From positions 25,379 to 89,378 of the forward strand of contig JBALTG010000001.1 of the NCBI GenBank assembly GCA_036964625.1: 64,000 bases of DNA, in the 5' to 3' direction. This document shows positions 7,235-31,428 of this stretch, one piece after another. A program made the translations under genes and the position numbers. The notes under the pieces are model-generated. The model searched no databases. It was not told where the DNA came from and was given only the letters and a program-made list of their open reading frames with translations. Every line of letters begins with the position of its first letter. The first letter of the stretch is position 1. This DNA is from Motiliproteus sp. (lineage in GTDB: Bacteria; Pseudomonadota; Gammaproteobacteria; Pseudomonadales; Balneatricaceae).

Positions 7235-7561
7235 CGTGTTGAAAACAGTTGTCGTGGTTGATGGGTGTAGGTAAGTCTCGACCTGATGTTGATGTTTGTG
7301 TTGTCACGGACACCTTAAGGGTTCCTTCTTACCTACAAAGCTACGCCATGAAGCAGCGGATCTATTTTCGTGAGCCGCACTAATCAAGCCATAGCGCTTA
7401 AGTCTTTCTGTTTACTCGCCCCTCCTTCAAGAAAAATCAGCCATGATGCCGCCGATCTATTCTCGCGTGCCCGTAAGTCCATCGCTGTGATGGCTGGAAA
7501 TCATGGCTAATCAGGAAATTTGTTACCTGAACAATTGAGGATTGGATTTGTAAACCGTCCT

Positions 7562-10390
<2,829 letters not shown>

Positions 10391-28378: not shown

Positions 28379-28654
28379 ATGAATTCAGAACCGGAAAAAC
28401 TGACTCGCAAGCACGCTGAACTTACCCACACCGACGAACTAAGGGTCATCTCCCACGTGCAGCGCGAATCCGGCGAGTGGTTTGTCAATACGCTGATGAT
28501 TGAAGCCTGCGAGGTTCCGTTTAAATACCGGCGTAAGAAGCGCTATAAAAGCCTGCAAGGGCAGCAGGTCAACCTCACTTATTATGCCACGACAGAGTCT
28601 GTCGCCGGATTGGAGGTCGAGATCATGAGCATTGTCAGGATTAAGCGATCCTGA
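28379..28654 (+). CDS. hypothetical protein (about 91 aa)
   Basis: Open frame with protein-like composition. No clear RBS, and the start is uncertain (TTG 28343 or ATG 28379). No family recognised. Confidence 0.4.
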   Translation: MNSEPEKLTRKHAELTHTDELRVISHVQRESGEWFVNTLMIEACEVPFKYRRKKRYKSLQGQQVNLTYYATTESVAGLEVEIMSIVRIKRS

Positions 28655-28703: not shown

Positions 28704-29363
28704 ATGAGCGGGACCGCAGAGCAAAAACCGCGTTGGTTTCGAGTCTGCCTGATACTGCTGCTCTACGCCGGACTTTTTTCGCTAGGCCACTGGGGCGGCG
28801 GCTGGATAACAGAATGGATCAACCTCGATCTCAGCGGCGACGCCTCATCTCCCAATTGGCAGATGATGATTGCGGGGATTGTCCTGTATGTGCTGTTGAT
28901 GGCGATTCCGTTCGTGCCCGGCATGGAGATAAGCATCGCTCTGCTCGCGGTGTTCGGTCCGGCTGCTGCGATACCGGTCTACATCGCGACGCTGGTTGCC
29001 TTGACCTTATCTTGCTTGATTGGGCAACGACTGCCCATCGTGGTACTCACCAGACTGTTTGCCGCGCTCGGCCTGCAACAAGCCAAGACACTGGTCCTGA
29101 GGCTGGAACCCTTAAACGCGCCACAACGACTCGAGATCCTGACCGAGCAGACCCCCAAGCGGCTCTTGGCGCTGCTGTTACAGCACCGTTACATCGCCGT
29201 CATCGTCGCCCTCAATACTCCGGGCAACGCCCTTATCGGTGGTGGCGGCGGCATCGCGCTGCTGGCGGGTATCAGCGGCCTATTCTCGTTACCGCGCTTT
29301 GTCATCGCCGTTGCGTTGGCAGCTGCGCCAGTCCCTCTCGCGATTCTGTTGATCAGCGGCTAA
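28704..29363 (+). CDS. polytopic membrane protein, unknown function (possibly DedA/VTT-like)
   Basis: 219 aa with 5-6 hydrophobic helices and a PFVPGMEIS motif reminiscent of the TVP38/DedA family. The family assignment is not certain. Confidence 0.65.
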   Translation: MSGTAEQKPRWFRVCLILLLYAGLFSLGHWGGGWITEWINLDLSGDASSPNWQMMIAGIVLYVLLMAIPFVPGMEISIALLAVFGPAAAIPVYIATLVALTLSCLIGQRLPIVVLTRLFAALGLQQAKTLVLRLEPLNAPQRLEILTEQTPKRLLALLLQHRYIAVIVALNTPGNALIGGGGGIALLAGISGLFSLPRFVIAVALAAAPVPLAILLISG

Positions 29364-29426
29364 TAAATCTGACCCCGACAGGTCCGGAGAATAGCGCTAG
29401 AGCCGCTGGCACGGAGGAATTTCAGA

Positions 29427-29626
29427 CAAAGAAAAGCCGATCACCTCAGCTCCAGAACGCGCGGTTCAAGAGTGCGATAATCGGCTCGGCTCCAGTTATT
29501 ATTGTTGTTAGGGAGCGGTGTTCGCAGAGCGCCATTATTATTGTTATTGCAGCGACTCTAACGGAGTTTTCGAACTTTTTTGTTATTCTTATTTTTTGTT
29601 ATTCTTATTTTTTGTTCTTATTACTG
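29427..29626 (-). ncRNA. candidate sigma54-dependent A-rich sRNA, copy A (about 200 nt)
   Basis: Bounded by the predicted TSS about 11 nt downstream of the -12 GC and by a compound hairpin (AGCCGAU...AUCGGCU) plus UUUUCUUUG. Contains three AANAANAA tracts. The 5' and 3' ends are predictions. Confidence 0.6.
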
Positions 29627-29634
29627 AACTATAT

Positions 29635-29650
29635 AGCAGAGAGCGTGCCA
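29635..29650 (-). promoter_or_regulatory. sigma54 -24/-12 promoter element, copy A
   Basis: Minus strand reads TGGCACGCTCTCTGCT against the consensus TGGCACG-N4-TTGCW, with GG and GC at the exact canonical spacing. Confidence 0.7.
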
Positions 29651-29746
29651 GAAATCGCAACATGCTGTTTTTGATAGGCTAAGAATATTTTCAGCCTAAT
29701 GCCACCAGATAAGTGTCCGCTAAGCGCTACCTATACACCCACATCG

Positions 29747-29777
29747 GGTAACACTTAATGGGTAGCAAGGTAACACT
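29747..29777 (-). promoter_or_regulatory. candidate enhancer (UAS) for a bacterial enhancer-binding protein, copy A
   Basis: Direct repeat of GGTAACACT (minus strand AGTGTTACC) with a 22 bp period, centred about 110 bp upstream of the -24 element. Confidence 0.5.
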
Positions 29778-29920
29778 TCGGCACAGTCTGCTGTTCTTGC
29801 GCGCACAACGACCTCCCAGCAAGCGACGCCTGACAGGCGATCTACCGCGCTGGACCCACAACACAGGATCTATCGGGCCGAAGACGAGCATCAATGCAGC
29901 TGACGCAGGGGGATTTCAGA

Positions 29921-30106
29921 CAAAGAAAAGCCGATCACCCCAGCTCCAGAACGCGCGTTTCAAGAGTGCGATAATCGGCTCGGCTCCAGTTATTATTGTT
30001 GTTTGGGAGCGGTGTTTCGCAGAGCGCCATTATTATTGTTATTGCAGCGGCTGTTGCGGAGTTTTCGAACTTTTTGTTATTCTTATTTTTTTTGTTCTTA
30101 TTACTA
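29921..30106 (-). ncRNA. candidate sigma54-dependent A-rich sRNA, copy B (about 186 nt)
   Basis: Same architecture as copy A, but without the extra 16-nt A-rich module. Confidence 0.6.
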
Positions 30107-30114
30107 AGCTATAT

Positions 30115-30130
30115 AGCAGAGAGCGTGCCA
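30115..30130 (-). promoter_or_regulatory. sigma54 -24/-12 promoter element, copy B
   Basis: Minus strand TTGGCACGCTCTCTGCTATATAG. Confidence 0.7.
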
Positions 30131-30227
30131 ATAAACGCAACATACTGTTTTTACAGGGTGTCGGCATGCTTTCAGGCTAATGCCTCCAGATGATAATCCG
30201 CTAAGCGCTACCTATATACCCACATCG

Positions 30228-30258
30228 GGTAACACTTGATGGGTAGCAAGGTAACACT
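30228..30258 (-). promoter_or_regulatory. candidate enhancer (UAS), copy B
   Basis: GGTAACACT at 30228 and 30250, a 22 bp period. Confidence 0.5.
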
Positions 30259-30387
30259 TCGGCACAGGCCGCTTTGTTGCGCCCACAGCAACCTCCCAGC
30301 AAGCGACCCACAGCACTAGACCTGCGGCACAGGGCTTATCAGGCCTGGAGACGAGTACTAACATAACGGACGCAGAGGAATTTCAGA

Positions 30388-30574
30388 CAAAGAAAAGCCG
30401 ATCACCCCAGCTCAAGAACGCGAGGTTCCAGAGTGCGATAATCGGCTCGGCTCCAGTTATTATTATTGTTTGGGAGCGGTGTTTCGCAGAGCGCCATTAT
30501 TATTGTTATTGCAGCGCCTATTGCGGAGTTTTCGAACTTTTTTGTTATTCTTATTTTTTTTGTTCTTATTGCTA
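30388..30574 (-). ncRNA. candidate sigma54-dependent A-rich sRNA, copy C (about 187 nt)
   Basis: Same architecture. This is the copy closest to the upstream exonuclease gene. Confidence 0.6.
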
Positions 30575-30582
30575 ATACATAT

Positions 30583-30598
30583 AGCAGAGAGCGTGCCA
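30583..30598 (-). promoter_or_regulatory. sigma54 -24/-12 promoter element, copy C
   Basis: Minus strand TTGGCACGCTCTCTGCTATATGT. Confidence 0.7.
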
Positions 30599-30694
30599 AT
30601 AAATGCAACGCGCTGTTTTTAAAGCGATAGCTGTATTTTAGGTATAAAACCATCTGATAAGCGCCCGCTAAGCGCTACCTATACACCCACATCG

Positions 30695-30725
30695 GGTAAC
30701 ACTTAATGGGTAGCAAGGTAACACT
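30695..30725 (-). promoter_or_regulatory. candidate enhancer (UAS), copy C
   Basis: GGTAACACT at 30695 and 30717, a 22 bp period, about 45 bp downstream of the exonuclease stop codon. Confidence 0.5.
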
Positions 30726-30768
30726 TTGATACGGCCCGCACTCTTGCGCGCACACTGCTCCGCCGCCG

Positions 30769-31428
30769 TTATGCCGACGCCTCGGGCTCCAATACAGGCT
30801 CCGGCTCCTGATCCAGGATCGGCAGCTGGGAATCGGCTTTGTTCATCGCTTCGAGCACCTTGAGCGCCGCGTAGGCATCATTCGCGGCGTACAGCAGCTG
30901 ATTGCTTTTCAATTCAGGCAGCGCCCAATTAGAGGTCGATACGTGCTTGGACTTTTGAAAACGCTGTTTCAACACGACCGCTATCGCCGCCTTGACCCCG
31001 ATCTCCTTGCGATAGCCTTCGGCACGAAATAGCAGATTCAGATCCAGCAGAGCCCTGGGTTTGATAGCGAGCTTTCGCAGCAGGTGACCCCGATCCGATT
31101 TCAGCCCGAAACCCACCTTGACCAGCGTCGGCAATTGCAGCAATTCTGCGACCAGGGCATGACAGGCGTCATGCTGTAGCTGAAAAATATAGGCCCTCTT
31201 CAGAGTCGTTAGCTGAATCACATGCGGGCCATCGGAGATCTGGCCGGGCCTGAAACAGGGCTTTGACTCGGTATCAAAGCCAACGTAACGACAGCGCGAA
31301 AGATCCGCTGCTGCCGCAACAAACTCGGCCTGGGTGGAGGGAACAATGATCTGCTCCAGAGTCAGGCCCGTAAACGGGGGCAGTAAGGCGATATCGGCTT
31401 TTGAGGGCGGTTCAAGCTTTTTGGTCAT
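30769..31428 (-). CDS. DEDDy-type 3'-5' exonuclease domain protein (RNase D/WRN-exo-like)
   Basis: 219 aa. ExoI motif GFDTES and ExoIII motif YAANDAYAA (Y-x3-D). Confidence 0.8.
   Translation of the reverse strand: MTKKLEPPSKADIALLPPFTGLTLEQIIVPSTQAEFVAAAADLSRCRYVGFDTESKPCFRPGQISDGPHVIQLTTLKRAYIFQLQHDACHALVAELLQLPTLVKVGFGLKSDRGHLLRKLAIKPRALLDLNLLFRAEGYRKEIGVKAAIAVVLKQRFQKSKHVSTSNWALPELKSNQLLYAANDAYAALKVLEAMNKADSQLPILDQEPEPVLEPEASA

Follow-up and report, generated by a model that had tools for sequence, protein, structure and literature searches.

We analysed a 64,000-nucleotide (64-kb) stretch of Motiliproteus sp. DNA (assembly GCA_036964625.1, contig JBALTG010000001.1, positions 25,379 to 89,378), referred to as the window, which carries three head-to-tail modules on its minus strand at about 29381-30768, slightly beyond the 29413-30740 given in an earlier note on this DNA. 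The best explanation of the locus is a set of three independently promoted and terminated genes, each for an RNA of about 185-195 nt, apparently related to the Pseudomonas RNAs CrcZ, CrcY and CrcX but divergent and half their size. Judged by their sequences, these are very probably sigma54-type small RNA (sRNA) genes related to crcZ. We also regard as likely, with somewhat less assurance, the whole mechanism proposed below, in which decoy RNAs for the Hfq distal face, dependent on RpoN and a CbrB-type activator, would be amplified threefold.

The array occupies a 1.4-kb gap between an exonuclease gene and an open reading frame (ORF) of 219 amino acids (aa). Each module runs from an upstream site through a GGTAGCGCTTAGCGG block, a sigma54 promoter and an A-rich RNA to a terminator. 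A repeat search of the window gave start-to-start spacings of 494 and 467 bp, and the three-copy alignment has a mean identity of 85%. The earlier note had described three tandem modules with periods of about 467-494 bp, and each element that it listed was found where it had been placed; the ordered parts (9-bp repeat, block, sigma54 element, A-rich body, hairpin and U-tract) are kept in all three copies. The features of the array are listed below, with RNA lengths counted from the predicted start through the end of the U-tract.

30695..30723, minus strand: copy 1, candidate upstream activator site TGTTACC-N15-TGTTACC, a forward CbrB-type hexamer on each side of a TGCTACC
30665..30679, minus strand: copy 1, proximal block GGTAGCGCTTAGCGG, which includes GTAGCG, one mismatch from the CbrB R2 subsite GTAACG
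30583..30598, minus strand: copy 1, predicted sigma54 -24/-12 promoter TGGCACGCTCTCTGCT, with the CTGCT variant of the -12 element
30389..30571, minus strand: predicted sRNA 1, 183 nt, with an 11-triplet 5' A-R-N tract, two hairpins with 5-triplet loops and a long terminator hairpin
30395-30413, minus strand: sRNA 1, inner stem of the terminator, followed by UUUUCUUU
30228..30256, minus strand: copy 2, candidate upstream activator site TGTTACC-N15-TGTTACC, exact motif match
30198..30212, minus strand: copy 2, proximal block GGTAGCGCTTAGCGG, invariant in the alignment
30115..30130, minus strand: copy 2, predicted sigma54 promoter TGGCACGCTCTCTGCT
29922..30103, minus strand: predicted sRNA 2, 182 nt, with the architecture of sRNA 1 and the inner stem of the terminator at 29927-29947
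29747..29775, minus strand: copy 3, candidate upstream activator site TGTTACC-N15-TGTTACC, exact motif match
29717..29731, minus strand: copy 3, proximal block GGTAGCGCTTAGCGG, invariant in the alignment
29635..29650, minus strand: copy 3, predicted sigma54 promoter TGGCACGCTCTCTGCT
29428..29623, minus strand: predicted sRNA 3, 196 nt, with a 14-nt internal duplication and the inner stem of the terminator at 29433-29453

The sigma54 element TGGCACGCTCTCTGCT, of the form TGGCAC-N5-CTGCT, is identical in all three copies, and its position would put the predicted RNA start at the first A-rich motif in each of them. Rfam places the start of CrcZ 27 nt past the T of TGGCAC in four pattern-retrieved Pseudomonas loci (L013, L095, L122 and L079); in the window the same offset lands one base before AAUAAGAAC. 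Farther upstream, every copy carries the 2 x 9 bp direct repeat AGTGTTACC-N13-AGTGTTACC, and the GGTAGCGCTTAGCGG block is invariant on the minus strand across the three. The composite TGTTACC-N15-TGTTACC occurs three times in the window, always in the array, where shuffling gave an expectation of zero. When loci are lined up on TGGCAC, TGTTACC lies about 125 nt upstream. The CbrB subsites F1 (TGTTAC), R1 (GTAACA) and R2 (GTAACg) have been dissected experimentally in the promoters of P. putida crcZ and crcY (PMC6296734). The putative CbrB subsites here comprise two perfect F hexamers and one mismatched R hexamer at the conserved distance, with the central subsite inverted relative to Pseudomonas. 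Their arrangement in Motiliproteus is F-N16-F-N17-R, with an R subsite that is GTAACG in two other Motiliproteus loci (L121 and L031), GTAGCA in a third (L092) and GTAGCG in the window itself; Pseudomonas, Marinobacter and Pelagadaptatus show F-N15-R-N16-R instead. Reading by eye, we found no convincing integration host factor site (WATCAA-N4-TTR) conserved across Motiliproteus between the upstream site and the promoter. No LuxO- or NtrC-type site was seen.

Single elements of this arrangement also occur elsewhere in the window. The heptamer TGTTACC is present 19 times, against 3.7 expected from shuffles, with only six occurrences in the array and 13 outside it (for example, at 7521, 19883, 22605 and 38876). 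Other sigma54-like matches, at 7959, 39614, 56418 and 62629, fall inside genes.

A consensus fold from eight aligned sequences gives each RNA a single-stranded 5' tract, hairpins 1 and 2 with A-rich loops, and a terminator hairpin. The 5' tract consists of 11 consecutive A-R-N triplets (AAU AAG AAC AAA AAA AAU AAG AAU AAC AAA AA(G/A)), and the two loops hold five each, giving 11 + 5 + 5 triplets per RNA in one tract of 33 nt and two of 15 nt. About 63 of 183 nt thereby lie in A-R-N triplets, in three units the size of an Hfq hexamer site, and each RNA contains 15-19 overlapping AANAANAA motifs. The distal face of an Hfq hexamer holds six A-R-N triplets (PMC4063720), from which we derive about three hexamer-sized Hfq sites per RNA. 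In the window as a whole, minus-strand runs of at least five A-R-N triplets number 13, and 11 of them fall within this 1.3-kb locus. Copy 3 differs by a 14-nt internal duplication of a AAGAATAACAAAAA-type unit (29575-29610, minus strand), which adds one A-R-N module, lengthens the 5' tract and splits its 11-triplet register into three runs of five triplets, so that this RNA has five shorter tracts in place of three. Each body closes with a terminator-like hairpin and a T-run; the hairpin is long and is followed by the UUUUCUUU U-tract. GGA occurs only twice per RNA, both times in a stem, as read directly from the sequence.

The predicted fold agrees with the pattern of substitutions. Over 29 consensus pairs, 93.9% of alignment cells are standard pairs, and displacing the partners by 1-3 columns lowers this to 33-49%. 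Both partners have changed in eight of the pairs, and the observed covariation score was not reached in any of 500 shuffles of the columns; compensatory changes, the covariation for which the earlier note had proposed a test, are thus present in the eight-sequence alignment. The minimum free energy of sRNA 2 is -45.8 kcal/mol (z = -2.3), and a covariance model of the Motiliproteus RNA (R1) scores 203.8 bits on sRNA 1.

Identity between the copies is mosaic. It reaches 95-98% in the upstream site and 94-96% in the RNA, and is 59-71% in the linker between upstream site and promoter and 55-79% in the post-terminator and spacer segments. Uniform similarity would be expected of a young duplication or an artefact, and uniform divergence of a decaying duplication; the mosaic therefore points to purifying selection, or else to gene conversion that affects only the functional blocks. 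The differences between copies, 4-6% within the RNA and 21-45% within the spacers, rule out an assembly artefact.

We found the module as a single copy in five further loci. Three come from other Motiliproteus metagenome-assembled genomes (MAGs; L001, which is the L121 contig, L031 and L092) and two are metagenome contigs (L125 and L127); the copy is complete in all but L127, where it is cut at the 5' end. A third metagenome match (L126) was discarded as a chance match, L125 and L127 being real homologues. The loci share the synteny sbcD, DUF4136 gene, exonuclease gene, sRNA, a 91-aa ORF on the other strand and an ABC transporter gene. At the orthologous exonuclease site of five more distant loci (L003, L004, L129, L130 and L131, the last from Neptunomonas), no sRNA homologue was found. 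In one of these, a MAG labelled Halopseudomonas whose exonuclease is 71% identical, the region downstream of the exonuclease gene (L129:5841-7357) holds tRNA-Arg(CCG), a phage-type integrase and phage genes. Because single copies stand at one syntenic site elsewhere, the pattern argues for vertical inheritance followed by local triplication and against a mobile repeat. We conclude from these comparisons of sequence that the module is a vertically inherited single-copy gene of a Motiliproteus subclade, triplicated in this lineage. The claim that a complete unit of enhancer, promoter, transcript and terminator is repeated here agrees with the block identity, the syntenic orthologues and the compensatory changes.

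The relation to CrcZ was examined from both sides. Rfam at gathering thresholds, run on the whole window, gave no match, and searches of the locus, with Rfam up to E = 10, gave no Qrr, riboswitch, transfer RNA or transfer-messenger RNA. At a relaxed threshold the CrcZ model RF01675 matched with 13.8 bits (E = 0.65 in a 2.2-kb search; gathering threshold 95 bits), a match driven by the A-rich motifs; of the two Rfam models that had been suggested for comparison, CrcZ was thus matched below threshold and Qrr not at all. A scan of 185,579 species genomes with the pattern TGGCAY-N5-YTGC-N8-20-AAYAAGAACAA returned at least 120 matches, and those listed were mostly Pseudomonas loci. Nearly all the Pseudomonas matches listed had TGTTAC upstream, most also had GTAACA/G, and all had 6-10 downstream AANAANAA motifs. 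Among the Pseudomonas loci tested against Rfam, all eight that matched were RF01675 CrcZ, at 166-366 bits. TGTTACC about 125 nt upstream and the CTGCT -12 element are common to the Pseudomonas, Marinobacter, Pelagadaptatus and Motiliproteus loci.

Reciprocal profile searches gave a similar picture. An nhmmer profile of the Motiliproteus modules matched the segment from upstream site to 5' RNA of a Pseudomonas locus (L018) with E = 7e-11; its matches to several more crcZ-family loci have E-values of 1e-3 to 1e-6. Model R1 matched the Marinobacter and Pelagadaptatus RNAs weakly (29, 22 and 21 bits) and the 5' part of Pseudomonas CrcZ at 16 bits. As separate observations on the same scan, only one of the Pseudomonas matches listed (L122) has an ORF with GAFTGA (cbrB) directly upstream, and an AAYAAGAACAA-type first motif seems typical of the unlinked paralogues of the CrcY/CrcX type, not of CrcZ proper.

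The genes of this array and those for CrcZ, CrcY and CrcX share the CTGCT variant at -12, TGTTACC about 125 nt upstream and a further putative GTAAC-type subsite, an RNA (in Motiliproteus a predicted one) that opens with an AAnAAGAACAA motif and ends in an intrinsic terminator, and several A-R-N/AANAANAA stretches in unpaired regions. Pseudomonas genomes likewise hold more than one paralogue (CrcZ plus CrcY or CrcX). The two groups differ in host, Motiliproteus lying outside the Pseudomonadaceae; in the tandem arrangement of the paralogues, since the window alone, among the pattern-retrieved loci (about 70 with CrcZ-type promoters), holds more than one copy; and in size, with 182-196 nt and three tracts in Motiliproteus against about 370-410 nt and five or six A-rich stretches in the CrcZ family. 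CrcZ itself is 407 nt long, has six A-rich stretches, and titrates Hfq by binding its distal face (PMC4063720). We conclude that the Motiliproteus RNAs are probably distant, non-Pseudomonad, miniaturised relatives that work like, and probably descended from, the RF01675 family. Because they fail the Rfam criterion and have half the canonical size, we do not file them as members. The comparison with CrcZ/CrcY made in the earlier note is borne out by the profile match (E = 7e-11) and the site spacing, and that with Qrr is not, as Rfam gives no match. Its suggestion of an undescribed family or a distant analogue holds as regards distance; 'undescribed family' was an overstatement, the relation to CrcZ being probably homology and not mere analogy.

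Intermediate forms were found beside cbrB outside the Pseudomonadaceae. In two Marinobacter loci (L087:123-3667 and L120:2200-7218), in Candidatus Pelagadaptatus aseana (L098:2129-7160) and in a further MAG (L035:459-5273), an A-rich sRNA lies directly downstream of genes for a kinase of about 1000 aa (PAS-HisKA-HATPase) and an activator of about 465 aa (receiver/sigma54-activator), forming a cbrA-cbrB-sRNA(-pcnB) cassette. The sRNA of L087 also lies upstream of pcnB, so the gene order there is that of Pseudomonas cbrA-cbrB-crcZ-pcnB. The cassette activators are 60-63% identical to the CbrB beside a verified CrcZ (L122) and nearly identical to it in the C-terminal helix-turn-helix, whereas an unrelated Motiliproteus activator is 38% identical. 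NCBI names the Pelagadaptatus activator CbrB; NCBIfam holds no CbrB or CbrA model, and no NCBIfam family matched at cut-off.

Scores against RF01675 fall stepwise, from 166-366 bits in Pseudomonas through 46-49 bits in Marinobacter (E about 1e-9), 27 bits in Pelagadaptatus, 24 bits in L035 and 19 bits in L015 to 14 bits in the window. They point to one fast-evolving RNA family of which the Motiliproteus branch is the most derived. At 24-49 bits against a threshold of 95, the cassette RNAs are missed by current annotation. They share with the Motiliproteus RNAs the layout of promoter and upstream site, the first motif, a host outside the Pseudomonadaceae and a score below the Rfam threshold. 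The Motiliproteus array differs from them in that they are single-copy, 270-400 nt long and in the presumed ancestral cbrA-cbrB-sRNA(-pcnB) position. Reviews describe CbrAB and the Crc-antagonist sRNAs as unique to Pseudomonas and Azotobacter (PMC8871633). Our literature searches on CrcZ-type RNAs or CbrB function outside the Pseudomonadaceae returned nothing relevant, and work on marine metatranscriptomes annotated cbrAB transcripts without comment (PMC5073097).

These observations suggest the following course of events. Under carbon limitation, a CbrB-type enhancer-binding protein of the NtrC family would bind TGTTACC and GTA(A/G)CG about 80-125 nt upstream of each promoter, as the identity of the CbrB subsites and their conserved position imply. 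It would then activate RpoN-RNA polymerase at TGGCAC-N5-CTGCT, an element that fits the consensus and matches the crcZ-family promoters, which in Pseudomonas are described as RpoN-dependent. From the promoter geometry, transcription would start about 12-13 nt past the GC of the -12 element, and the RNA would open directly with an A-rich tract, as CrcZ does. Each RNA is predicted to expose three A-R-N stretches, in a structure that the covariation supports. By analogy with CrcZ, these stretches would occupy the distal face of Hfq, possibly with Crc as partner, and would draw Hfq off the A-rich ribosome-binding sites of catabolic and transport mRNAs, relieving repression when preferred carbon is scarce. 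Triplication would provide about 9-11 Hfq sites, compared with six in one CrcZ, together with a higher maximal rate of synthesis. Transcripts might also read through from the exonuclease gene into copy 1, because no terminator was seen in the roughly 45 nt between the exonuclease stop and the upstream site; this would parallel the read-through from cbrB to crcZ described in P. putida (PMC8871633).

Several points weigh against this mechanism or the descent from CrcZ. A six-frame motif scan (GAFTGA, ESELFG and GESGTGKE) and Pfam/NCBIfam annotation of about 40 ORFs revealed no gene for a sigma54 activator, a CbrA-like kinase or a Crc-like protein in the 64-kb window, and the array stands beside neither cbrB nor pcnB, unlike CrcZ proper. 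A search with the Pelagadaptatus CbrB returned, among its best 120 matches, only proteins of Cellvibrionaceae type (73-86% identity) and none from Motiliproteus. Between CbrB lineages identity is about 60%, in a star-like pattern, so a Motiliproteus CbrB would rank below the best 120. The central upstream subsite is forward in Motiliproteus (F-F-R) as against F-R-R in Pseudomonas, Marinobacter and Pelagadaptatus, and the proximal R subsite is mismatched in this genome (GTAGCG). The RNA body scores far below the Rfam CrcZ threshold (13.8 versus 95 bits), and homology of the RNA proper is argued from weak reciprocal matches and a shared type of motif. The covariation is modest and comes from only five or six independent lineages, which makes it supportive but not conclusive.

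A different function for the same genes would be that the RNAs act mainly by base-pairing with mRNAs, like Qrr or class II sRNAs, with the A-R-N stretches as a handle for loading onto Hfq, the linkers GUUCGAAAACUCC and CUGCGAAACACC as seeds and an activator that is possibly not CbrB. We consider this unlikely. Conservation across lineages extends in part to the segments between the A-R-N tracts, but these are more variable than the tracts themselves. The U-rich terminator tail is a usual mark of RNAs bound at the Hfq proximal face, whereas some 63 of 183 nt in A-R-N triplets, in three Hfq-hexamer-sized units, suits the need of a decoy and exceeds that of a loading handle. No CbrB gene was seen near the locus, yet the upstream hexamers are of CbrB type and stand at the CrcZ distance. 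Tandem multi-copy sRNAs that act by base-pairing are common, but the locus matches neither Qrr nor another sRNA family in Rfam and showed no LuxO- or NtrC-type site. Qrr1-5 of Vibrio resemble the present genes in being sigma54-dependent, Hfq-associated and multi-copy; they differ in having dispersed genes, LuxO sites and a base-pairing core, where here Rfam gives no match and the upstream site is of CbrB type.

It is considerably less probable that the RNAs are decoys for a factor other than Hfq/Crc that binds A-rich RNA, or have a structural or other role apart from catabolite repression. Such a role would fit the fact that neither Crc nor CbrAB was found in the 64-kb window, and also the small RNA, which at half the CrcZ length does not pass the CrcZ covariance model. 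The exact A-R-N periodicity over 11 consecutive triplets, however, is the signature of the Hfq distal face (PMC4063720), and the promoter homology ties the genes to crcZ-type genes. The RNAs RsmX/Y/Z and CsrB/C offer a parallel in that repeated binding motifs lie on one RNA and paralogues tune the dose of decoy for a global RNA-binding protein. They use GGA loop motifs and GacA/UvrY-dependent sigma70 promoters, in contrast to the A-R-N stretches and sigma54 promoter found here.

That the locus is a non-functional tandem duplication or a mobile repeat with chance promoters and terminators, such as a miniature inverted-repeat transposable element (MITE) or a repetitive extragenic palindromic (REP) element, or else a small-protein gene, is hardly credible: it is repetitive and of low complexity, and mechanical ORFs of 50-140 aa overlap it, but there are no terminal inverted repeats and no further copies in the 64-kb window, related genomes have a single copy at one syntenic site, not dispersed ones, functional blocks are conserved at 94-98% against 55-79% in spacers, and compensatory base changes stand beside frame-breaking indels between copies and between orthologues. 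A MITE- or REP-type repeat was accordingly ruled out, as was a protein gene, the bodies of the copies differing by indels of 1 nt and 14 nt and the overlapping ORFs being short or of low complexity. The earlier note had likewise found no credible ORF in the gap and had set aside a MITE, a protein gene and an array of clustered regularly interspaced short palindromic repeats (CRISPR), and all of these judgements stand.

The flanking genes are the following.

30769..31428, minus strand: 3'-5' exonuclease gene (PF01612), upstream of the array and on its strand, with the stop codon about 45 nt before the copy 1 upstream site
28704..29363, plus strand: hydrophobic ORF of 219 aa, downstream of the array and convergent with it

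A Motiliproteus sp. MAG encodes a protein with 100% identity to the exonuclease. The 219-aa ORF, which has no Pfam or NCBIfam match, sits between the sRNA array and a conserved ORF of about 91 aa (28379-28651, plus strand; no Pfam family). It looks like a lineage-specific insertion, because the syntenic loci L001, L031, L092 and L125 have no counterpart. The 91-aa ORF is 57-87% identical beside the sRNA site in all Motiliproteus-like loci, including L004, which lacks the sRNA. The remainder of the window is ordinary chromosome in the Pfam and NCBIfam annotation of about 40 ORFs, with ribosomal protein operons, uvrA, moaA/C, fabA/B, obg, proB, ilvD and trmB, and the further housekeeping genes sbcCD, argA, argE, glnE, ilvE, waaA, msbA, lpxL and pseB.

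A sigma54/CbrB-driven decoy for Hfq is known as a kind; what is new in these predicted genes is the clade that hosts them, their miniaturised architecture, their location apart from cbrB and their triplication in tandem. We give an even chance to the following history: the circuit of CbrAB, A-rich decoy and Hfq would not be peculiar to the Pseudomonadaceae but ancestral to a broad range of marine Pseudomonadales (as GTDB defines them), among them Marinobacter, lineages resembling Cellvibrionales and Motiliproteus; in Motiliproteus the decoy gene would have left cbrB-pcnB and shrunk to about 185 nt and three Hfq sites before one lineage tripled it, with an enhancer and promoter of its own for each copy. 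If this is true, copy number and the number of Hfq sites are an evolvable dose parameter of a protein-sponge RNA, and the triplication, with its conserved blocks and decayed spacers, would be a clean natural example of tuning the dose of such an RNA. At about 185 nt, with one A-R-N tract in a single strand and two in loops, the Motiliproteus RNA could help to dissect sequestration of the Hfq distal face. The Rfam model recognises neither the Motiliproteus RNAs nor the cassette RNAs of Marinobacter and a Cellvibrionales-like lineage. Together, these RNAs suggest that the hierarchy of carbon sources in common marine heterotrophs is controlled by titration of Hfq, which would bear on how these bacteria prioritise dissolved organic carbon.

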